Assembly (NCBI GenBank): GCA_043821645.1
Contig: JBDRCO010000113.1
Location: 32,001-96,000 of the forward strand
Direction of reading: 5' to 3'
DNA from: Pseudomonadota bacterium
GTDB taxonomy: Bacteria; Myxococcota; JACRCW01; JAFGSX01
Length of the DNA: 64,000 bases
The stretch's first letter is position 1. Every line of letters starts with the position of its first letter. Under the pieces are notes generated by a model, which had not been told where the DNA came from, searched no databases, and worked only from the letters and a program-made list of their open reading frames with translations. The position numbers were made by a program, and so were the translations under genes. Positions 24,379-35,510 of this stretch are shown in pieces.

Positions 24379-25719
24379 TCAAGATGACGCTCCTCGCCGT
24401 CGGGACGGAGCGTCGCGAAAGGCGCTGGGACGCAGGTCCCAGGGCAGCAGACGGAGCACGATGGGCAGCAGCAAGGCCCCGCCGGGGAGTGCAAACAGGG
24501 CCAAGGACGGGACCGCGCGGACGATATCCAGCAACTGCTCCCGCACGCGGGCGCGCTCGCTGTCGTCCAGGCTGTGCCCGCCAGCAGCCCGGGTCAGCAA
24601 GGTCGCAAGCTCCCCGGTCTGGCGGATCTCCGTGACCAGGGCGTCGAGGTTGCGCTGAACCAGGCCCACCACTCGCTTCTGAACCAGGCCACCAAGCCGG
24701 CCGTAATACTGCGTCTCGGTGAACAGATCGAACAGGTCGCGGTGCGCTTCAACGAAGCGCCGCACGCGGACCTCGATACGGCGGAGCTGCAGATCCGGGA
24801 CCTCGAGCTGGGCGGCCAGCTGATCGACGAAGCGACGCTCGTCACGATCGATGTGGCCATCGATGACCGCGGCCAGGAGCACCTGTTCGAGCAGGTAGCC
24901 CACGGAGCGTCGACCCTCGACCATGTCCGCGACCTGTGATGCCGTCAGAGGCTGCTCGAGCAAGCGCTTCAACGCGCGCACCTGGCCACGTGAGAAACCG
25001 CAGCCACCGAGCTGACCGGCAGCCATGCGCCTGGCTTCGGGAGGCAGTCCCTGCCCTCCCGCCACCAGGGCACCCAGGGAGGCCACCAGCATGTAGCGTT
25101 CGCGCTGAAAGAAAGCCCTCAGCTTGCTCAACACCTCGAGATCGACACCGCCACTTGCAGCCACCGCCAGCGTGATGCGCCCGACCAGGCGCGCGTCGCT
25201 GTAAAGCAAGCCGTTGCGCAGGGGCAAGCCGAGCAGAGGGTTGCCCACGGCGTACTGGCGCGCTGCCAGCATACTCTCGAGGGTGGAGCGGATGCGGGTG
25301 AGCTGGCGCCGCGTCAAGGAATGTCCCTGGCAAACCTGGAACAGCTGCACGGCCATCGCGTCCTGCTCGACCAGCAGTGCCAGGCAGCACAGCAACCAGG
25401 CCTCAACCTGCTCGGTGCGCACGCGACTGGACGAGACAGCCTCGATCTCGATGATGAGGTCGCACCAGATCGCCAGGAAGGGCTCGAAGGCTTCTTTCCA
25501 GGCTCCGGACTCCACCGCGTTGAGGAGTTCAGGGCGGGCCAGGGGCAGCCCGTAGGCCACGCCACGGCGATGCAGGCTCCAGAAGATCCAGCGCTTGGCA
25601 GCCCCCTTGCGGTCCGTCGTCCAGGGTCGCAGGATGCGCCCTACCCTCCACTCGACGGCGGCAACGTCGTGCGCACCAACATAGCGCTGGAGGAATCTCT
25701 CGAGCCATCCGCGCTGCAT
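24379..25719 (-). CDS. TerB-like / LETM1-like domain protein
   Basis: AAVIDGHIDRDERRFVDQLAAQL (TerB-like) and C-terminal VPSLALFALPGGALLLPI...PSAF (LETM1-like). Confidence 0.65.
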   Translation of the reverse strand: MQRGWLERFLQRYVGAHDVAAVEWRVGRILRPWTTDRKGAAKRWIFWSLHRRGVAYGLPLARPELLNAVESGAWKEAFEPFLAIWCDLIIEIEAVSSSRVRTEQVEAWLLCCLALLVEQDAMAVQLFQVCQGHSLTRRQLTRIRSTLESMLAARQYAVGNPLLGLPLRNGLLYSDARLVGRITLAVAASGGVDLEVLSKLRAFFQRERYMLVASLGALVAGGQGLPPEARRMAAGQLGGCGFSRGQVRALKRLLEQPLTASQVADMVEGRRSVGYLLEQVLLAAVIDGHIDRDERRFVDQLAAQLEVPDLQLRRIEVRVRRFVEAHRDLFDLFTETQYYGRLGGLVQKRVVGLVQRNLDALVTEIRQTGELATLLTRAAGGHSLDDSERARVREQLLDIVRAVPSLALFALPGGALLLPIVLRLLPWDLRPSAFRDAPSRRRGASS

Positions 25720-25943: not shown

Positions 25944-27779
25944 ATGACAGGACGGTCACTCGTCATGCGCCTGGCGCTGACCGCGGGAGCGGTGATCCTG
26001 CTCCTGCTGGTGCTGGCTGCCATCGTGCTGTGGCCCCTGCAGCGGCGCGCCGTGGAACCCATGGTGCGGGCGCACCTCCGGACCCTGACCGACAGAGTTG
26101 CGGCAAGCTACGACAGCTTCGACGAGGCCTCCCGTCTGCACCCCGTGGGCGACCTTCTCCTCGACGTGACCAGGCTGGACTTCGTGGTCGGTGCTCTGAT
26201 CCAGACTGCCAGCGGCACCGCGTCGCACCGCAGCGGCGAGATCCCTGCCGAGGGGAAGCGCTGGATCCATCTGCAACGTCCCTTGCCTCGCCGCGCCGGC
26301 TGCGCCCGTTGCCACCGCGAGCCCATCGAGTCGCTGGGCAGTGTGTTGCTGGTCGGGGACCTGGAGCGCGCCGCGGCACCCGTGCTCGACGCGCACCGGG
26401 TCTCGATGCTGGTCCTCGCCTTCGTGGTCCTGGGCGCGCTGCTCATCGTGGCCGTGGCGGCGCGACGTCTGATCACGCGACCGCTGTTACAGCTGGTTGA
26501 CACCATGAGCCGGGCCAAGGAGGGCGACTTCCTGGTGCGAGCCCCGACCGATCGTGACGACGAGATCGGGCACGTCGCCCGGACCTTCAACACCATGCTC
26601 GCCGCGATCACCGATCTGCAAGCCTCGCGCATCGAGCAGGCCCAGGACCTGGCCGTCGCCCAGCATGAACTCGCACTTCGCCAGCAGCTCGAGGAACGCA
26701 ATCGGGTCATCGCCGAGACCAACGCCAGCCTGCAGCGCAAGGTGGACGAGCTGACCCTGCTCACGGATCTGACCCGGGCCGTGACCTCGACCCTGGAGCT
26801 GAAAGCCGTACTAGATGAGGTGTGCCGGCGCGCCGGGACCTTCATGGGTGTCGACGAGGCCGTGGCATTGCTCAACGAAGATCAGCGGCAACGCGTGCGC
26901 GTGATCTCGATGCACGGGGTCCCTGCCTCGGTGGACCTGCGGGACCTGACCTTCAAGCACGGCGACGGAATCACCGGCCGTGTGGCTCTCTCCGGACGCA
27001 CCATCCTGGTCAGGGATACCACCGCGGACCCGCGCTACTTGCACTACAAGGGGCAGCGTCCCGTCGACGGGTCCTTCCTCTCCGTGCCCATGCTGGCCAA
27101 GGGCCGGGTGCTCGGAGTGCTCGACTTCTTCCGGGCTCAGGTCGACGCCTTTGATGAACGATCCATCACCTTGCTCACCGCGGTGGCCGGCCAGGCCGCC
27201 CTCGCGGTGGAAAACGCTCGGCTGTACCAGATGCAGACTGAGCTGGCCCTGACCGATGCCCTGACCAGCCTGCACAACAGGCGGGCGCTGGATCAGCGCC
27301 TCGAAGACGAGGTGCACCGCGCGTCGCGCTTTGGCAATGCCCTGTCCGCCCTGATGATCGACGTCGATCACTTCAAGGATTTCAATGACCAGCACGGGCA
27401 TCTGGTGGGTGACCTCGTGCTGCGCCAGGTGGCGCGCGTGCTGCGACGGCAAGTGCGGAAGGTCGACACCATTGCGCGCTTCGGCGGCGAGGAATTCTGC
27501 GTGCTGCTGGTGCGGACCCCGCTGGCTGATGCCCTCGACGTGGCCGAGAAGCTTCGCCAGACCGTCGCCGACAGGCGTTTCTCCAGGCTTCGCCGGGACG
27601 CCAAGCTCCAGGTCACGGTCAGCATTGGTGTGGCCGAACTCGGCGCCGAGATGAGAGGCCCCCAGGAACTCCTGGATGCGGCCGACGGCGCGCTCTATGA
27701 CGCCAAGCACGGCGGACGCAACCGCGTCTGCGTGTGGCAGGGTGCGGCCGGTGCCTCGACGACGATTCCCCAGAAGTGA
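25944..27779 (+). CDS. Membrane diguanylate cyclase (periplasmic CxxCH sensor-HAMP-GAF-GGDEF)
   Basis: CARCH between two TM segments, HAMP (DDEIG), GAF (SFLSVPM...AVENARLY), DVDHFK..ND..GH, RKVD I-site, GGEEF. Confidence 0.93.
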   Translation: MTGRSLVMRLALTAGAVILLLLVLAAIVLWPLQRRAVEPMVRAHLRTLTDRVAASYDSFDEASRLHPVGDLLLDVTRLDFVVGALIQTASGTASHRSGEIPAEGKRWIHLQRPLPRRAGCARCHREPIESLGSVLLVGDLERAAAPVLDAHRVSMLVLAFVVLGALLIVAVAARRLITRPLLQLVDTMSRAKEGDFLVRAPTDRDDEIGHVARTFNTMLAAITDLQASRIEQAQDLAVAQHELALRQQLEERNRVIAETNASLQRKVDELTLLTDLTRAVTSTLELKAVLDEVCRRAGTFMGVDEAVALLNEDQRQRVRVISMHGVPASVDLRDLTFKHGDGITGRVALSGRTILVRDTTADPRYLHYKGQRPVDGSFLSVPMLAKGRVLGVLDFFRAQVDAFDERSITLLTAVAGQAALAVENARLYQMQTELALTDALTSLHNRRALDQRLEDEVHRASRFGNALSALMIDVDHFKDFNDQHGHLVGDLVLRQVARVLRRQVRKVDTIARFGGEEFCVLLVRTPLADALDVAEKLRQTVADRRFSRLRRDAKLQVTVSIGVAELGAEMRGPQELLDAADGALYDAKHGGRNRVCVWQGAAGASTTIPQK

Positions 27780-27787
27780 CGGGATGC

Positions 27788-28756
27788 TCAGGATGTGGTG
27801 GCCGCGTCCGTCCCGCGACGGAAGGAGTCCGGCACACACAGAACCTGCTGACTCCTGAGCACGCGGACCGCCTGTCCGCAGTTGCTCCCGATCTGGTCCT
27901 CGCGAGGGTCTCCGACGCTGAGGATCACGTCAAAGCCGCCCGCCCGCAGGCGCTGCACCGCCACATCGACCTGGTCCCGTGCCCCAGCTCGCAGCACCGT
28001 GTGCAGCGCATGCGCATCGCCGCGGGCCGTCGGGTTGAGCGGTGTGAGCTTGATCGTGAAGAGGAGGGGATCGAAGCGGCACAGCAGGACCGCGGGATCG
28101 AAGGGCACACCCTCGGCGAGGGCAAAGTTGAGCACGACGCGACGATCCCCCGCCACGACGAAGCGCTCGCCGTAGTCCGCGATGGCGTCGGGACCCCAGT
28201 GCGGCACCGGGATGAGTTGACGTCGCAGCGCGTCATCGGTGGTGTTGAGCGAGAACTGGAGCTGGAAACGCCCGCGGTACAACGCCCGCTTGACGTCGAG
28301 AAGTGCATCGAAGAAGCGCTCCTGCCCTCGCGGAGCCACGGTCGCCAGGCAGGCCCACAGGCCCGGGCTTTGCACCACCTGCGGCAGCTGCCACAGGGCC
28401 TCGATGACGGCGTCGTTGTAGGCCGGCTCCCCCATGCGCGCGAAGTGGATTTTGAGCTTGCGACAGCTCGCCGCCTGGTCCGGGTGCTGCGACAGCACCC
28501 AGCGCACCTGGGCCAGCAGCTCGGCTGCACTGAGGTGACCCTGAAAGTCGCCACCCGCGTCGCAGTAAGGGCAGCCGACGGGGCAGCCGATCTGGGTCGA
28601 GATGTTGACGATCCACTTGTCGAGCCGAGGCCGTGGCGGATCGAGTCCATCCACCATCTCGACGAGCAGGCGCGGGTCCTGGCGTAACCTGGCCACATGC
28701 ACCACCGCGACCTCGGGCATCCCGTGGCTGCCCACCACCTCGAGGAGCTCACTCAT
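27788..28756 (-). CDS. RlmN/Cfr-like radical SAM protein (non-canonical)
   Basis: STQIGCPVGCPYC (CxxxCxxC), RMGEP, QFSL, PLNPT, GSNCGQ; shorter than RlmN. Confidence 0.85.
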   Translation of the reverse strand: MSELLEVVGSHGMPEVAVVHVARLRQDPRLLVEMVDGLDPPRPRLDKWIVNISTQIGCPVGCPYCDAGGDFQGHLSAAELLAQVRWVLSQHPDQAASCRKLKIHFARMGEPAYNDAVIEALWQLPQVVQSPGLWACLATVAPRGQERFFDALLDVKRALYRGRFQLQFSLNTTDDALRRQLIPVPHWGPDAIADYGERFVVAGDRRVVLNFALAEGVPFDPAVLLCRFDPLLFTIKLTPLNPTARGDAHALHTVLRAGARDQVDVAVQRLRAGGFDVILSVGDPREDQIGSNCGQAVRVLRSQQVLCVPDSFRRGTDAATTS

Positions 28757-29667
28757 GCGCGCCCACCTCCTCCGATCCGTGTCGCAAGATAACCGTGTGC
28801 CAGGCAGGCGGCGTGCACACCATCGCCGAGAGCGGGTGCGATGTAGCGCTGGCTGTCCCGGGTCAGGTCACCGGCAAGATACAGCCCAGGCACGGGCTGC
28901 AGACGCTGCAGAGGTCGATCCCCGGGCAGCCCTAGCCCCCGCAGCAGCTGGGTCTCGGGTTCGCGCCCGATGCAGGCGACGACGTGGGCGACTTCGACCT
29001 GTGTGCGGGGCGCGGCCTCCCCACCAAGAATGGCAAGCAGGCCCTCGCGGGTGGGCTCGCAGCGGCGGGCGGTCAGCCCCGGCCAGATCTCGACGCCAGA
29101 CGCCCGTGCTTCATGCAGCAGGGCTGGACGAGCGCGGAATCGGTCCCCTCGCAGCGCGACAGCCACGCGAGCGCCTCGGTCCGCCAGGGACAGCGCCGTA
29201 TCCAGGGCGACCTCGCCACCTCCGAGCACCAGGATCCGCTTGCCTTCCGGGAGATCCAGCAAGGTGCGCAGATCGCGGTGTGCGAGCCCGCGTTCGGTGC
29301 AACGATCCCAGCCCTCGACGTCGACAGTCCGTGGTCGAGTGCCACTGGCCAGCACCACGGCGTGAGCGACGATGGTGCCGTGATCCTGCTCGGCAACGAA
29401 CTCCTGGTCGCGGCGCGTGAGGGAGCGGACACGGCCCGCGATGGACGTGATGCCAGCCTGCCCGAGCTGTGTCTGCAGCCGCTGCCCCAGACCGATGCCA
29501 CTGATACGAGGCAAGCCCGGAAGGTTGTCGATGCGCCTGGCCGCCCGGGCAAGTCCTCCCGCGGGTTCATCCGCGACCAGGGTGATCTCGATTCCGAGGG
29601 CCGCGGCCTGTAGTGCCGCCGCCACGCCCGCGGGTCCCGCGCCGATGACGAGCAGGGCGGTTCGCAT
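28753..29667 (-). CDS. Thioredoxin-reductase-fold NAD(P)/FAD oxidoreductase
   Basis: IGAGPAG, GG...IDNLPG, LASG, VLGGGEVALD, PGLYLAGD...ALGDG; no CxxC. Start ATG 29667 overlaps the upstream stop. Confidence 0.85.
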   Translation of the reverse strand: MRTALLVIGAGPAGVAAALQAAALGIEITLVADEPAGGLARAARRIDNLPGLPRISGIGLGQRLQTQLGQAGITSIAGRVRSLTRRDQEFVAEQDHGTIVAHAVVLASGTRPRTVDVEGWDRCTERGLAHRDLRTLLDLPEGKRILVLGGGEVALDTALSLADRGARVAVALRGDRFRARPALLHEARASGVEIWPGLTARRCEPTREGLLAILGGEAAPRTQVEVAHVVACIGREPETQLLRGLGLPGDRPLQRLQPVPGLYLAGDLTRDSQRYIAPALGDGVHAACLAHGYLATRIGGGGRA

Positions 29668-30323
29668 CAGTGCTGCCACCCCCAGGCGTCGAGGATCTCG
29701 TCGACGGTGGCGACGTGCGCGTGCCCAGCTGCCAGCGTCTGCAGCGCGGCCAGGTGCTGCTGCGCGCTGCGGGCTGCGGTGGCGTCGATGCTGACCACGG
29801 GGACCAGGCCGACCTGTGAGGCGTCCAGGGCACTGGCGGCGATGCACAGAGGAGTCTGCACGCCCGCGAGCACTAGCGCATCGCAGCCGTCGAGGAGCGC
29901 GGGCAGTTCGGCGGCGCTGAAGATGCTGTGTCGGCACTTGTCGACGACGGGGCCTGTGGACCAGAGATCCTCGAGCGCCGGATCCAGGGCAGCCAGGACC
30001 TCACCCGCGCGAGGCAAGCGGTCGAAGAAGCGCCCCATCAGACCCCCCACGTCGTCGTCGGGATGCACGTGGCGCGTGAAGATCACTGGACACGTGGCCC
30101 TGCGAAAAGCCGCGACCAGAGCCCGCAGCGGCAGGACACAGGCAGGCCAGTCCGGCAGGGCGGCAGGACTCGCGGGGTCGCAAAACAAGCGCTGCAGGTC
30201 CACCACCACGAGCGCGGGCCGATGCAGATCGTCAAAAGTTCGGCGTCCCCGCAGTGGTGCCAGCGCATGCAGGACCCCGGATATCCCGGCGGCGGCATGC
30301 ATCGGACGGACCCCATCCGTCAC
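29667..30323 (-). CDS. Isochorismatase-family cysteine hydrolase
   Basis: Catalytic triad intact: VVDLQ (Asp), VDKCRHSIF (Lys), GVQTPLCI (Cys). Confidence 0.88.
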   Translation of the reverse strand: MTDGVRPMHAAAGISGVLHALAPLRGRRTFDDLHRPALVVVDLQRLFCDPASPAALPDWPACVLPLRALVAAFRRATCPVIFTRHVHPDDDVGGLMGRFFDRLPRAGEVLAALDPALEDLWSTGPVVDKCRHSIFSAAELPALLDGCDALVLAGVQTPLCIAASALDASQVGLVPVVSIDATAARSAQQHLAALQTLAAGHAHVATVDEILDAWGWQH

Positions 30324-31417
30324 CGCACACCTCCTGTGGTCGTGGGGACGCGAATGCTCCGGCCGTCGACGGCACGCAAGGTCCAGGCATCCTCATCGCG
30401 CGCGATCACACGTCCGGGGTGCAGGCGCACCTTGCCTCCGGCCTCGGGGAGGTCGACCACCAGATCGGGCAAGGCCAACCCAGATACGCGGTCACGCAGT
30501 GTCTCGATGAGCGCCATGGCGCGCTCGAGCGGCACCCGGACATGTGCGCTGCCGCTCACCAGATCACACTGGTGCAGGTAATAGGGGACCACGCGCTGCT
30601 GCAACAGGGCTCTAAAAAGGTTCTCAAGGACCTGGGCGTCGTCGTTGATCCCGCGCAGCAGCACGGTCTGGCTCAGTACAGGCACTCCGGCGTTCACCAA
30701 TCGACCCAGAGCGCCCGCCACCTCCGCATCCAGTTCCACAGCATGGTTGATATGCACGAGCACAAACAGAGGCTGCGCCCGCCTGAGCACACCGACCAGA
30801 CGCGCCGTGATACGCCTCGGCACGAACACCGGCAGCCGCGTGCCGAGCCGGATCACCTCGACGTGACGCAGGGTCCGCAGCTCTCGCAGCAGCAGCTCGA
30901 GACGACGGTCGTCGAGCATGAGCGGATCGCCCCCGGACAGGATGACCTCCCGGATCTCATCGTGGGCATGCAGGTACTCGAGGGCCGCATCGAGACGGGG
31001 TGGCGGCGTACCCGCCAGCCGCGCACGCGTGCAGAAACGGCAATAGGCCGCACACGTGCCGGTGACGAGGAGCAGGGCCCGATCAGGATAGCGGTGCACC
31101 AGCCCGGGCACGGGCATGTGCTGCAGCTCGGCCAGGGGATCCCCGTGCTCCCCTTCTGCCACCGCGAGTTCCGCCATGCGCGGGATGAGCTGCCGGCGCA
31201 GGGGATGGTCGCGATCGGCCCGGGGCAGGTGGCGCAGCACATGGGGGGTCAGCGCCAGCGCGCGGGCTCCATGCAAGCTCCGTATCGCCGCGCGCTCGTC
31301 ATCATCGAGATCGAGGTGCCGCTCCAGACCCGCCAGGTCGGTGACCACGCGGGCGAGTTCCCGCTGCCAGGGGGACGGAGGGGTGCGGCGATGACTCCGG
31401 CGAAGGGCGCTGTGCAC
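30320..31417 (-). CDS. KamA-family radical SAM aminomutase (lysine 2,3-aminomutase-like)
   Basis: DPLAE, GLVHRYPDR, CAAYCRFCTR, SGGDPL, QTVLLRGIND, YYLHQCD, VDLPEAGGK (PLP Lys). Confidence 0.92.
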   Translation of the reverse strand: MHSALRRSHRRTPPSPWQRELARVVTDLAGLERHLDLDDDERAAIRSLHGARALALTPHVLRHLPRADRDHPLRRQLIPRMAELAVAEGEHGDPLAELQHMPVPGLVHRYPDRALLLVTGTCAAYCRFCTRARLAGTPPPRLDAALEYLHAHDEIREVILSGGDPLMLDDRRLELLLRELRTLRHVEVIRLGTRLPVFVPRRITARLVGVLRRAQPLFVLVHINHAVELDAEVAGALGRLVNAGVPVLSQTVLLRGINDDAQVLENLFRALLQQRVVPYYLHQCDLVSGSAHVRVPLERAMALIETLRDRVSGLALPDLVVDLPEAGGKVRLHPGRVIARDEDAWTLRAVDGRSIRVPTTTGGVR

Positions 31418-31702
31418 GTTGAGCCTCGCGCGGGGCCTGAGGCCCCATCGACAGCCCCCTGAAGACGGCGATGCCCCGGCAGCAGAGACCAGCCGGGTAG
31501 CGCCATGTTCGAATCACCCGCCGGAACCCTCGATTTTCCTGCGCGGGACGCGGCTGTACCATCAATCCTCGCGCAGAGGAACAGCTTATGCCCGGGCGGG
31601 GAGAGACCTCCACCTTCGAATGGGAGAGCGGTGTGGGAACGCGCACTGCGATGAGGACGCGGAGCTCGGGTCAGCGGAGAGAAGCGGCGATTCGCGGTTG
31701 GC

Positions 31703-32095
31703 TCACGGAGTGAAGGTCTGACAGCTTGCCTTGTTGCCGTCCCCTGCGGTGATGGTGACGGCGTACTCGGTGCCGACCTCCAGGGTCTTGGCCACACCCT
31801 CGGCCTCCAGTGCCCCGGTGGGCACGGTGCCGTAGGTCACCGGTGACGGGAAGGGAGATCCCGACATGCTCAGGGTCCACTGCCGCTCGGTGGTCTCGGG
31901 GAACTTGGTCACGGCCAGGCCTGCGGCATCGCCATCCCAGGAGATCTCGGGTGTGATACCCGAACCCACGGTGACCGCAAAATCACCTTCGCACCCCGTG
32001 CCGGCGTCGAGGAGCCCTGTCAGATCAAAAGGACAGCCACCCACCAGGCCCGTCAAAGCCAGCACTGCGCTCAACCCGATCTTCGATCTCAGCAT
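31703..32095 (-). CDS. Small hypothetical lipoprotein
   Basis: Signal peptide with LVGGC; GAGG RBS upstream. Confidence 0.75.
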   Translation of the reverse strand: MLRSKIGLSAVLALTGLVGGCPFDLTGLLDAGTGCEGDFAVTVGSGITPEISWDGDAAGLAVTKFPETTERQWTLSMSGSPFPSPVTYGTVPTGALEAEGVAKTLEVGTEYAVTITAGDGNKASCQTFTP

Positions 32096-32427
32096 GATAA
32101 CCTCGTGTGAAAACAGACAGTTAATGGACTCGAACCCCTCCGGGGCCCGGCAATATAACTGTGACCTGGAAATTGTCCATCGCCTTGGCGCTGCTGCCAG
32201 GCTGTGCCTGCACCCACCCGGCCGGGGGGCAGAGATCTACAGTCCCAAGCGTCGAAGCACATTCGAACGGCAGTGCTGGCTAATTCCTGCTGCCCGTGCT
32301 CTGGTGCGACCCGCTCGCCACAACTGACGCCATTCTGGCGTCTTGGATTTCTGCCAGGCCTCCTCGCAGAACAAGTGACGACAAAACCGAGGCTGCCCAG
32401 GGCAGCGAGAATGGAGCGTAGTAGATC

Positions 32428-32742: not shown

Positions 32743-33053
32743 CAGCGTCCTCGCGGCCAGTTCTGTGACGACCTCTCGCGCCCCGACCAAGGAGCGCGGC
32801 TCGACTTTTTAAAATCCCATTCTCCATATCTGTCGAGCGTGCGCGGCGGCCTGCTGCGACGCCACATTCATGCCTCGGCACCGGGGTCGTGACCGGAGCC
32901 CTGCTCGCGCCACCTTGCGATGGAAGATCCGGGTTCCGGCGGGATCCTGAAGCGAGATGCGGCCCCCCTTCAAGCGCGATACCCTGTTGGCGACGGATGA
33001 ATGCCTGACGTCAGGTTCCGTCGCGGCTGGTGCCGCGACCGAAGAGACAGCAG

Positions 33054-35510
33054 ATGAAGCACAACGCGCGAGTGCTGGCCTTGCTGGTGCTGATCGGGAG
33101 TGGGACCCCGGCCTGCGAGCCGGTGCAACAGCCGGTGGCAGACGCGGGCGGCCTGCAGGTCGACGCGACCCGCAGCGATGGCACCCTGGTGACGACGGAC
33201 AGCGCCGGGCTCACCGATGCGTTCTCGGGCCAGGACAGGTCGCAGCACCGCGACGCAGCAGGAGCTGCTGATGCCTCGCCTGCCGGGGACGCGGCGGGTG
33301 GCGATGCGCGTACCTCGGATGCCCACGCCCTCGATGCAGGATCCGCGGACCGAATCGTGGCTGACGCACAGGTACCGGATGGAGACAGACCCGACGCGCA
33401 GACCGCTCTGGACGCTGCCCACCTGGACACACAGGGCGCCGCCCCGGACCTCGCCGCGACCCAGGACGCGGCAACACCGGCGGACGCAGGCCTGTTCGAC
33501 GCGGCCAGCGAGGTCACGGGGCTCTCGATGCGTTACTGGGTCCCAACCTTTTCCGATGATTTTCGTGGCAAGCCCGACACCTCGACCGAAAACAACGAAT
33601 GCTACGACACGATGCAACCGCGCTGCGCGGTGTGGACCGGGAGCCAGGGGAACGACTGTGCGACCCCCTGGGGCGGCGGTGGTCCGGTCGACGGCGCGTA
33701 TTTTTCCCCTCTGCGGGAGAACATGGCGGCAGCGATCGCCGCGCTCGACAGCTCGAGAAACTGGGCGAGCGAGAGCTGGGACGTCGTGCACACCCGTTAC
33801 GCCGAGCTGGTGCAGGAGCGCCTGCGCCACCTCAACAAGTGCGTCTGGACCAGCTACGAACAGCTCAACTGGTGGGGCACGGACTACCAAGGGAACTGGT
33901 CGACGCGCCATGACCCAACCCGGGTGCTGGTGGACCCGGCAGGCAAAGGCTACCTCCACCTCTCCGCAGTGCACGCCCCGGTGCAGGCGAATTGCGTCTA
34001 CGGAGGTGTGGTCTCCGGACCCGGCGAGGTCAATTGCCAGCTCCTGAGCTTCGCAGCGGGCGTGCTGCACGTCGGCGTGAGTTACTGGGTGGACGCCGAC
34101 CCGCGGTGGCCGGGGGTCTACTACGCCGGTGTCAGCGGCACTTGCCCCTACGGTGGCAGCGGGGGATCCCCGAACTGTCTGGTGCATGCCTTCGCACTCG
34201 AGGACATCGAGGCCGGTCCCAGCTACTGGGTCGACAGCAACCCCGCCTTCCCCGGGGTCTACTACGCGAACGACAGCCCCTATCGCTGCCGTGAGAACAC
34301 CGAGTACCCCGGCGGCGGAGTCTTGTTTCGCGCGCTGACCTGTCCCCTGCTGACCGGCGCCATCCAGAGTGCCGACGCTCCGCCTGTGGGGAGCGCGACC
34401 CTGCGCCGCGGCTTCGATCAGCTGCACGGCCGCTTCGAGGCCAAGCTGCGCATCCCGCGTGGACCAGGCGCCTTCCCTGCCGCCTGGTTGATGCCGCGCT
34501 CGGGCGGCTGGCCCTACTCGGGAGGCGAGATCGACATCGTGGAGGCCAGGGACGCGGCCGACGAGGTGTTTCAGACCTACCATCACGGGCGCTGCGTGGC
34601 CGAAGACTGGCTGAGCGAGCTGCTCACGGACCCCGGCAACCCGCTGCTACCCATCGACAGCGGACGCTGTGCCTCGCTGACGGGTTATCGCTCGCTGCAG
34701 TTGAGCAAGGGCGTCACCACGCGCCAGCGCAGCTACGCGCACGGGCCCACCCCTTCCAATGAGTTCTTCACCCGGGACCACGTCTTCGCCGTGGAATGGG
34801 ACGAAGACGAGATCCGGTACTCCATCAACAACGTGCATGTCCACACGGTGACGACGGGTACCGTCGCCGGAAGTGTCCACCTCCTGAACGGGCCAGCCCT
34901 CCCCGTGCTGGGTGCACCCCTGAGCTACCGGACCTTCGCTGCGCACAACCTGCCGACGCAGGCCATGTACTGGATCCTCAACCATTCGGTCTACGTCCCG
35001 TCGACGGGCTGGACGGGCTTCGTGCCGCAGGACCTGCGCGTGGACTATGTGCGGACGCTCCGGGCCTGCACCACGCACGCAGATTTTTGCCCCTGTGGTG
35101 GGCGCTTCGTCGAGGGTACAGGCTGTGTGCTGGACAGCAGCGCGCAGCTCCAGTGCCCTGCGGGCACCACGTCGCCCGGCGTCGTCGACGGCGTGTACGC
35201 GAGTTCCTGTGCACCCACGCGCATGGAATGCGTCGCGGGTGGGGTTCCCTTTGGTCCCAACTGTCAGGTCCACGCCTTTGCCGATGGGGTGCTGCGCAGC
35301 GACGTGAGTTACTGGGCAGACGCCGATCCGCGCTGGCCAGGGGTCTTCTACGCGGGGGTGAACGGGACCTGTCCCCATGGCGGTAGCGGTGGCAACCCGA
35401 ACTGCCAGCTTCTCGGCTTTGCTGGGGACCTGCTCGAGGACGGCGTCATCTACTGGGTGGACAGTGACCCGCGCTGGCCCGGCGTTTACTACGAGCCGGA
35501 CTTCCGCTAG
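33054..35510 (+). CDS. Glycoside hydrolase family 16 lipoprotein with Cys/Trp-rich repeats
   Basis: Signal ending TPAC, Asp/Ala-rich linker, FSDDF, GRFEAKLRIP..G.FPAAWL, WP.GGEIDIVE (ExDxxE), HVFAVEW, RVDYVR. Confidence 0.88.
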   Translation: MKHNARVLALLVLIGSGTPACEPVQQPVADAGGLQVDATRSDGTLVTTDSAGLTDAFSGQDRSQHRDAAGAADASPAGDAAGGDARTSDAHALDAGSADRIVADAQVPDGDRPDAQTALDAAHLDTQGAAPDLAATQDAATPADAGLFDAASEVTGLSMRYWVPTFSDDFRGKPDTSTENNECYDTMQPRCAVWTGSQGNDCATPWGGGGPVDGAYFSPLRENMAAAIAALDSSRNWASESWDVVHTRYAELVQERLRHLNKCVWTSYEQLNWWGTDYQGNWSTRHDPTRVLVDPAGKGYLHLSAVHAPVQANCVYGGVVSGPGEVNCQLLSFAAGVLHVGVSYWVDADPRWPGVYYAGVSGTCPYGGSGGSPNCLVHAFALEDIEAGPSYWVDSNPAFPGVYYANDSPYRCRENTEYPGGGVLFRALTCPLLTGAIQSADAPPVGSATLRRGFDQLHGRFEAKLRIPRGPGAFPAAWLMPRSGGWPYSGGEIDIVEARDAADEVFQTYHHGRCVAEDWLSELLTDPGNPLLPIDSGRCASLTGYRSLQLSKGVTTRQRSYAHGPTPSNEFFTRDHVFAVEWDEDEIRYSINNVHVHTVTTGTVAGSVHLLNGPALPVLGAPLSYRTFAAHNLPTQAMYWILNHSVYVPSTGWTGFVPQDLRVDYVRTLRACTTHADFCPCGGRFVEGTGCVLDSSAQLQCPAGTTSPGVVDGVYASSCAPTRMECVAGGVPFGPNCQVHAFADGVLRSDVSYWADADPRWPGVFYAGVNGTCPHGGSGGNPNCQLLGFAGDLLEDGVIYWVDSDPRWPGVYYEPDFR

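Follow-up and report, generated by a model that had tools for sequence, protein, structure and literature searches.

A widespread three-gene cassette around an RlmN/Cfr-like radical SAM protein, and an aminomutase gene joined to it in a Myxococcota bacterium

The locus described here lies in a 64,000-nucleotide (nt) stretch of a Myxococcota genome (assembly GCA_043821645.1, contig JBDRCO010000113.1, positions 32,001 to 96,000; hereafter the window, and G000 for the genome), in which the listing of open reading frames (ORFs) shows four consecutive genes on the minus strand at 27788-31417. From upstream to downstream, they encode a KamA-family aminomutase-like protein, a cysteine hydrolase, a flavoprotein and a radical S-adenosylmethionine (SAM) protein resembling RlmN and Cfr (Table 1); the last three are referred to below as the cassette. 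A preliminary description of the locus had reported same-strand genes with overlapping stops and starts at all three junctions, and direct reading of the sequence bears this out: the GTG start of the hydrolase gene overlaps the KamA stop in a GTGA at 30323-30320 (an in-frame ATG at 30302-30300, 21 nt downstream of the GTG, is an alternative start), the TGA of the hydrolase gene (29669-29667) and the ATG of the flavoprotein gene (29667-29665) share one base in ctgATGcga, and the ATG of the radical SAM gene overlaps the flavoprotein stop in an ATGA at 28756-28753. A 394-amino-acid (aa) ORF starting at GTG 29937 was rejected as the flavoprotein gene, being an artefact of the longest-ORF listing. 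Operons normally have abutting or overlapping genes, and the orthologous cassettes are packed as tightly as that of the window. An assembly or binning chimera is ruled out, since metagenome contigs of two other studies bridge all three junctions with 0-3 differences and the arrangement therefore exists in nature: the KamA/hydrolase junction is bridged by X2 record 16 (30097-30566, 0 differences) and X3 record 26, the hydrolase/flavoprotein junction by X2 record 15 and X3 record 24, and the flavoprotein/radical SAM junction by X3 record 22.

Table 1. Features of the four-gene locus (positions in the window).
Feature	Positions	Strand	Length	Remark
KamA-family radical SAM/PLP (pyridoxal phosphate) lysine 2,3-aminomutase-like gene	30320..31417	-	365 aa	upstream of cassette
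Isochorismatase-family cysteine hydrolase	29667..30323	-	218 aa	cassette gene 1
Thioredoxin-reductase-fold FAD/NAD(P)H flavoprotein without redox-active CxxC	28753..29667	-	304 aa	cassette gene 2
N-terminally short RlmN/Cfr-like radical SAM protein	27788..28756	-	322 aa	cassette gene 3
Upstream intergenic region	31418..31702	-	285 nt	presumed promoter site of four-gene unit

The surroundings of homologues of the radical SAM gene were gathered from relatives of the organism, from a 401-genome sample of the phylum, from scans of genome and metagenome collections and from a 201-genome sample of the archaeal class containing one of the matches. This yielded 67 loci, 64 of them distinct and 57 of these with a match of at least 250 aa; the metagenome scan contributed 9 loci only, 5 of which are too short to judge. 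In 45 of the 51 distinct loci with at least 1 kb of upstream sequence, the radical SAM gene is immediately preceded by a flavoprotein gene, and two of the six loci lacking one there (L080 and L148) show a partial flavoprotein match farther away. The hydrolase gene is found upstream of the flavoprotein gene in 25 of the 50 loci with at least 1.7 kb upstream; by domain of life, it is present in 15/23 archaeal and 8/24 bacterial loci with at least 3 kb upstream. The order, hydrolase, flavoprotein, radical SAM protein, is fixed in bacteria and archaea. All-against-all clustering of the ORFs showed these three families to be the only ones common across loci, the other clusters consisting of shadow ORFs and local synteny of close relatives; no conserved fourth gene emerged from either the 34 mostly bacterial loci or the 23 archaeal ones. 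Pfam scans of the neighbours in 19 cassette loci returned unrelated functions only, and a search of 12 cassette loci against Rfam found no riboswitch and a single tRNA. A KamA gene is absent from all 47 distinct loci with at least 3 kb upstream, and from all 64 overall.

The cassette proteins also occur fused to one another in all three pairwise combinations, although some singletons could be gene-calling read-through: hydrolase and flavoprotein in P0123 (526 aa) and P0124 (533 aa), flavoprotein and radical SAM protein in P0121, P0122, P0133 and P0144, and radical SAM protein and hydrolase in P0148, P0151, P0155, P0166 and P0177, the last combination being found again as an ESM Atlas cluster of 58 members with 520-aa forms. 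These fusions are strong evidence that the three proteins act together, and we regard it as highly probable that the three-gene cassette is a functional unit that does not include KamA. The preliminary description had gone further and proposed a self-contained, possibly uncharacterised pathway of all four genes, with their co-occurrence in other genomes as its test; by the counts above, the four-gene unit fails this test. The hydrolase, flavoprotein and radical SAM genes do make up a conserved unit, for which no characterisation was found. A four-gene pathway around a beta-amino acid survives only as a possibility specific to this lineage and is not supported as a conserved one.

The cassette family is present in 28 of the 401 Myxococcota genomes, with 17/18 in the family f4, 3/4 in f8 and 4/172 in f11; no member turned up in the three other genomes of the class to which the organism belongs, nor, at E<=1e-40, in the same-family genome G001, which is 82% complete. 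It occurs in 71 of the 201 genomes of the archaeal class and in metagenome-assembled genomes (MAGs) labelled Actinomycetes, Aminicenantes, Bacteroidetes, WOR-3 and Thermoplasmatota. The radical SAM family gave 1837 matches among 8000 scored candidates (90% clusters), which are named either 'radical SAM protein' or, automatically, '23S rRNA (adenine2503-C2)-methyltransferase', and a profile search among 1.84 billion sequences returned 6246, 1956 and 194 representatives of clusters at 50% identity at E<=1e-3, 1e-10 and 1e-30, respectively. Two side observations concern these genomes. In the f4 genomes, the flavoprotein and radical SAM genes are paired with no hydrolase gene next to them, and an unlinked gene encodes a 414-417-aa fusion of UPF0158 and isochorismatase (L095:4844-6097 in G005; L096:4955-6199 in G096), 36-40% identical to the window hydrolase. 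The match to the radical SAM protein is interrupted by one in-frame TAG each in G537, G535, G420, G596 and, in the Myxococcota sample, G015 and G101, and by one in-frame TGA each in G544 and G438 of the archaeal class; some of the TAGs in the archaeal class may be read through or encode pyrrolysine, unless the genes concerned are simply disrupted.

RlmN and Cfr, which as far as we know are the only class A radical SAM methylases to have been characterised, methylate A2503 of 23S rRNA and A37 of tRNA by a chemistry that depends on two cysteines; in RlmN, we take Cys355 to be the methyl carrier and Cys118 the resolving cysteine. The RlmN/Cfr models are the sole NCBIfam matches of the cassette radical SAM protein, and they are weak: 44.7 bits on TIGR00048, whose cutoff is 290, and 63.3 against 422 on the best one, NF011034. 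The fold is clearer. In its AlphaFold (AF2) model (predicted local distance difference test, pLDDT, 92), the best Foldseek matches among solved structures are RlmN (5hr7, 6fz6 and 3rfa, E about 1e-15) and Cfr (9p0p, 1e-8), the top 11 chains being all RlmN or Cfr and the next family following at 2e-6. When the columns of 28 family members are numbered by alignment with the annotated E. coli RlmN, the equivalents of C125, C129 and C132 are Cys in 28/28, and that of C355 is Cys in all 26 members that reach the column, within an SNCGQ motif. The equivalent of C118, by contrast, is Cys in none of the 28 (N in 17, I in 7, V in 2, S in 1 and G in 1). In the alignment, about 60 residues of E. coli RlmN precede the first residue of the cassette protein, whose model opens with beta strands (5-39), the helical N-terminal domain of RlmN being absent. 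The 'RlmN-like' label of the preliminary description calls for qualification, as both the N-terminal domain and an equivalent of Cys118 are absent. Nor is this protein the housekeeping RlmN, as G000 has RlmN proper elsewhere (contig C68, 335 bits on TIGR00048, above cutoff). Two further RlmN-like paralogues of the same genome (G000:C118:48826-49704 and G000:C106:28505-29407) do not reach the TIGR00048 cutoff, with 244 and 212 bits. An argument on RNA binding from protein charge was dropped, as the median isoelectric point of the family (6.27) differs little from that of the control, E. coli RlmN (6.56). Among viral models (BFVD), the radical SAM model matches N-terminally short RlmN-like proteins of phages: A0A6J5RTK8 of an uncultured phage (284 aa, E 1e-17) and the RlmN-like B3FJU2 of Pseudomonas phage 201phi2-1 (302 aa, E 3e-13).

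The families to which the preliminary description had assigned the four proteins are the right ones by Pfam, NCBIfam and Foldseek: KamA TIGR00238, hydrolase PF00857, a flavoprotein of the thioredoxin reductase (TrxR) fold and an RlmN/Cfr-like radical SAM protein. The hydrolase scores 103.2 bits on the isochorismatase family (gathering score 27) and reaches no NCBIfam equivalog. Its Asp42, Lys129 and Cys161 columns, presumably the catalytic triad, which had been called intact, are conserved in 14/14 aligned orthologues. The flavoprotein matches PF07992 with 106 bits and stays below the TrxR equivalog TIGR01292 (124.1 bits for a cutoff of 343.45). In the alignment with TrxR 5uwy, CAVC faces RDLR, so that both redox cysteines are replaced, and 32 flavoprotein sequences show zero conserved Cys columns while keeping the GxGxxG, GGGEAA and GD motifs. 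The predicted complex of the flavoprotein with the radical SAM protein scored 0.00, which speaks neither for nor against binding.

A hint at the type of substrate comes from the fusion partners seen among the 150 best profile matches of the radical SAM family. P0216 (E 6.4e-47) joins the radical SAM domain to QueT, an energy-coupling factor (ECF) S-component for queuosine precursors, and P0231 and P0236 (E about 1e-43) join it to both QueT and a methylthioadenosine/S-adenosylhomocysteine (MTA/SAH) nucleosidase domain, which in P0231 exceeds the MTA/SAH nucleosidase equivalog cutoff (224 against 169 bits). P0259 (E 1.1e-36) resembles an ECF S-component weakly, without reaching the Pfam cutoffs. 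These weaker family members keep the RMGEP, LNFA, K(L/I)TP and C-terminal CG motifs of the cassette protein and likewise lack a Cys at the C118 position; in the ESM Atlas, the cassette protein matches a QueT/PNP fusion cluster structurally (TM 0.81). QueL was reportedly described by Yuan et al. in 2019 as the radical SAM enzyme with which Clostridioides difficile salvages queuine indirectly. In a passage of PMC11570991, the queuosine hydrolase (QueK), an ECF-S component and the queuine lyase QueL (YP_001088187.1) of C. difficile carry consecutive accessions, and QueL is said to turn queuine into preQ1 in passages of PMC12632869 and PMC7694415. The fusions suggest that the proteins joined to QueT are enzymes of the QueL type, to which the cassette protein is related; it would then have a free heterocyclic base as its substrate instead of rRNA. 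A small-molecule substrate for the cassette is, judging from sequence, a serious possibility that we stop just short of calling probable. As a separate tie of the wider family to nucleotide-type small molecules, P0263 (468 aa, E 3.6e-36) is a radical SAM protein with a C-terminal NUDIX domain.

The KamA protein of the window exceeds the TIGR00238 cutoff (297.1 against 199.2 bits) and stays below those of the equivalogs AblA (TIGR03820, 321.3/525.4), AblA_like_2 (319/396) and EpmB (TIGR03821, 279.1/369.3), as well as below those of the glutamate (288/650) and arginine (270/600) 2,3-aminomutases. In a phmmer alignment with lysine 2,3-aminomutase 2a5h (E 1.8e-81), the CxxYCRxCTR cluster and the QCD, VVD and GGK motifs are identical, as the preliminary description had noted for the CxxxCxxC cluster, the PLP lysine and the two Asp residues; the latter we take to bind the lysine epsilon-amino group. 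The window protein is short, lacking the C-terminal domain (about 50 residues) of the 416-aa 2a5h enzyme. KamA-family genes occur in 41/41 genomes of the relatives sample, and at E<=1e-20 G000 has two, the window copy and one on contig C42. The best relatives of the window copy are found in G034 (52% identity, adjoining a TPR gene) and, within its own class, in G003 (51%) and G002 (48%); G001 has no orthologue of it, its best matches being 40% and 34% identical. Two cassette carriers, the MAGs G404 and G405 labelled Bacteroidetes and WOR-3, have no KamA-family match at E<=1e-20, their completeness not being given. KamD and KamE were not found in G000, while the positive controls G002 and G003 were detected, and the neighbouring genes bear out the preliminary description in that neither epmA/efp nor ablB nor a lysine-fermentation gene adjoins the locus.

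A maximum-likelihood tree of 51 KamA sequences, made by a quick search, places the window copy in a 14-row set (SH-aLRT 97) together with E. coli EpmB, TPR-linked copies and two kamDE-linked copies of its class, and the C42 copy in the 37-row remainder. G000 has an EpmA above the curated cutoff (311 against 286.9 bits), as do 30 of the 41 relatives, and its main EF-P (elongation factor P) has a VKPGKG loop, as in E. coli EF-P. It is therefore probable that EF-P is beta-lysylated in this organism and that an EpmB is required, for which the window copy appears the better candidate of the two. That it is the EpmB equivalent is the answer towards which the sequence comparisons moderately lean. KamA is then a lineage-specific addition upstream of the cassette, an adjacency seen only in this organism; the gene is probably co-transcribed with the cassette here, yet it is not a conserved part of it. 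The C42 copy (G000:C42:34526-35515; L092:5829-7166, minus strand) encodes 445 aa, scores 493 bits on AblA for a cutoff of 525 and adjoins a 594-aa histone-deacetylase-family gene (L092:7294-9078); the same pairing in G038 (L117) may make this a conserved pair. Operons of the kamA-kamD-kamE type (lysine 2,3- and 5,6-aminomutase) were seen in several Myxococcota genomes, at L089 (G003), at L090 (G002), at L106, L108, L110 and L113 of family f8 and at L137 of G026, and they fall in two separate KamA clades.

Altogether, we read the locus, with moderate confidence, as a widespread three-gene cassette to which an aminomutase, probably of the EpmB type, has been joined in this lineage. The flavoprotein, which lacks the redox disulfide and in some proteins forms one chain with the radical SAM domain, would pass electrons from NAD(P)H to the [4Fe-4S] cluster of the radical SAM protein or, alternatively, reduce an intermediate; the pathway's own electron supply, proposed in the preliminary description, fits the flavoprotein-radical SAM fusions. 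The radical SAM enzyme would cleave SAM and attack a small heteroaromatic substrate, probably nucleobase-like rather than rRNA, with the conserved C-terminal Cys acting either as a methyl carrier, as in RlmN, or as a hydrogen donor, as in a lyase. The cysteine hydrolase may cleave the substrate or the product at an amide or amidine bond, before or after the radical step. KamA, for its part, would make beta-lysine for the lysylation of EF-P by the unlinked EpmA. One could push the mechanism further and imagine a three-component system in which an enzyme of the class A type, naturally devoid of the resolving Cys, acts on a free heterocyclic metabolite, the NAD(P)H flavoprotein takes the place of a second cysteine in resolving the Cys-CH2-substrate (or radical) intermediate, the hydrolase finishes or prepares the substrate and the translational coupling to KamA supplies beta-lysine in this organism; we give this extension little credence.

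Several observations weigh against our preferred reading. As regards EpmB, the window KamA lies below the equivalog cutoff of that enzyme and scores slightly higher on the AblA models, its same-class relatives in G003 (L089) and G002 (L090) head kamA-kamD-kamE operons, so that the 14-row clade is not purely EpmB, and the branching within this clade is weakly defined, the tree being a quick search only. The GTGA overlap with the hydrolase gene would moreover fit a functional coupling of KamA with the cassette in this lineage. As regards the substrate, the link to QueL is an indirect one, the QueT-fused subfamily being presumably of the QueL type, and G000 has TGT, QueC and QueF and therefore does not depend on the salvage of queuosine precursors. 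Neither a transporter nor a riboswitch accompanies the cassette in the Pfam and Rfam scans of the loci, and the retained Cys355 equivalent and the RlmN fold are compatible with RNA methylation too.

Could all four genes instead serve one pathway, in which the beta-lysine (or beta-arginine) made by KamA is processed by the other three proteins into a new metabolite? Their common strand and overlapping junctions, the GTGA between KamA and hydrolase included, the recurrence of the arrangement in contigs of two further studies, the lysine-type Asp residues of KamA and the lack of kamDE in the genome all agree with it. Yet none of the 47 loci with sufficient upstream sequence, nor of the 64 overall, contains KamA, two carriers have no KamA-family match at all, G001 has neither a cassette match nor an orthologue of the window KamA, and the ordinary role of EpmB is available for this protein; we consider a single pathway quite improbable. 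It is also unlikely, in our view, that the cassette is an RNA-modifying system, its radical SAM protein being a methylase for adenine (or another base) in rRNA or tRNA that is reduced by the flavoprotein, the hydrolase having an accessory part. RlmN and Cfr are by far its closest solved folds and its only NCBIfam matches, it retains the Cys355-type cysteine and the RMGEP motif, and many members bear the automatic methyltransferase name; however, 45 bits against 290 is far under the family cutoff, the model lacks the N-terminal domain with which, as we understand it, RlmN contacts RNA, the Cys118 equivalent is absent in 28/28, the genome already has RlmN and two RlmN-like paralogues, and the fusion partners of its relatives are ECF S-components, NUDIX and MTA/SAH nucleosidase domains, with no RNA-binding domain among them. 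As regards the missing cysteine, the titles of structures 5hr6 and 5hr7 state that C118A RlmN remains cross-linked to tRNA.

Neighbouring genes often have no functional link, and it may be asked whether KamA is a unit apart from the cassette and the cassette, in turn, no more than a row of three unrelated, separately transcribed neighbours. For the cassette, this is already contradicted by the order kept across two domains of life, in which only these three genes are conserved, and by the existence of all pairwise fusions; in addition, overlaps of 1-4 nt leave no room for a promoter or a terminator. We hold chance juxtaposition to be very improbable indeed.

A full-text literature search, which left supplements and subscription papers outside, found no published description of the cassette; one selenium paper that it returned for the cassette partners was set aside as irrelevant by title and abstract. 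In the passages retrieved, a paper on the phylogeny of Cfr and RlmN mentions only an unnamed small subfamily of unknown function, and Kaminska et al. came up as a match for RlmN-like/Cfr-like proteins of unknown function. What we rate as new is a radical SAM enzyme of the RlmN/QueL type with two dedicated partners: a large family that keeps one of the two cysteines of RlmN/Cfr and never the other, and that has its own flavoprotein and often a hydrolase. The family would bridge the RNA methylases and the QueT-linked, queuine-lyase-like enzymes, and the automatic name '23S rRNA (adenine2503-C2)-methyltransferase' is probably wrong for many of its members. With its three proteins, the cassette is a system on which new radical SAM chemistry can be tested concretely; the KamA gene of the window should not be read as a member of a conserved pathway.

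Downstream, 8 nt separate the operon from the stop codon of a convergent HAMP-GAF-GGDEF gene, and 285 nt lie between its start and a small upstream ORF without a Pfam match; further neighbours encode AspRS, an RRM protein and a GH16-like protein. Promoter and terminator scans of the operon ends gave nothing informative: the upstream intergenic region contains no sigma-70-like site and no Rfam family, and the sole promoter-like site within 27400-32300 (32179-32152) lies farther upstream. At E<=1, Rfam shows no riboswitch or other RNA family beside the operon, PADLOC matched none of the four proteins to a defence model, and metatranscriptome matches are limited to two unlike pieces. Elsewhere in the window, the plus-strand gene at 33030-35510 encodes an 826-aa protein with a weak GH16 match, in which a 'YWVD.DPRWPGVYY'-type motif occurs four times flanking the catalytic part, and a 446-aa ORF without a Pfam match at E<=1e-4 lies on the minus strand at 24379-25719, between the AspRS and GGDEF genes.

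Among known systems, the cassette radical SAM protein resembles RlmN and Cfr in its core fold, in the position of the CxxxCxxC cluster, in the (R)MGEP motif and in the C-terminal Cys, which lies in a CGQ motif at the position of Cys355 of E. coli RlmN. It differs from them by the lack of the helical N-terminal domain, by the replacement of Cys118 (mostly by Asn, Ile or Val) in all 28 members and by the company of a flavoprotein (45/51 loci) and often of a hydrolase; we know of no such partners for RlmN and Cfr. Its presumed likeness to QueL runs through relatives, which carry QueT-type ECF S-components in the same chain and match the profile at E values of about 1e-43 to 1e-47. Unlike QueL, it comes with a flavoprotein and an isochorismatase-family hydrolase instead of a transporter or a nucleoside hydrolase, and G000 makes preQ1 de novo.

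The flavoprotein shares the two-Rossmann-domain fold and the FAD/NAD(P)H motifs of thioredoxin reductase and of the TrxR-type ferredoxin-NADP+ reductases, and its best sequence matches in the PDB are TrxRs (E 1e-21); it differs from thioredoxin reductase in having neither a CxxC nor any conserved Cys, in its score (124 against 343 bits) and in its partner, which appears to be the radical SAM protein, to which it is sometimes fused. The window KamA is like EpmB (YjeK) in being 42% identical to the E. coli protein over 315 aa and, by the quick tree, in the same 14-row clade, in being short (365 aa, against a 1029-nt gene in E. coli) and in belonging to a genome with an EpmA above cutoff and an EF-P with KPGKG; it is unlike EpmB in its score (279 against 369 bits), in adjoining neither efp nor epmA and in having kamDE-linked relatives in its class. 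With the KamA/AblA enzymes of lysine fermentation and N-epsilon-acetyl-beta-lysine synthesis, it shares the strong match to 2a5h, with identical cluster, PLP-Lys and Asp residues, and AblA is its best NCBIfam match, but it scores 321 bits where 525 are required, lacks about 50 C-terminal residues of 2a5h, has no ablB-type neighbour and lies in a genome without kamDE.

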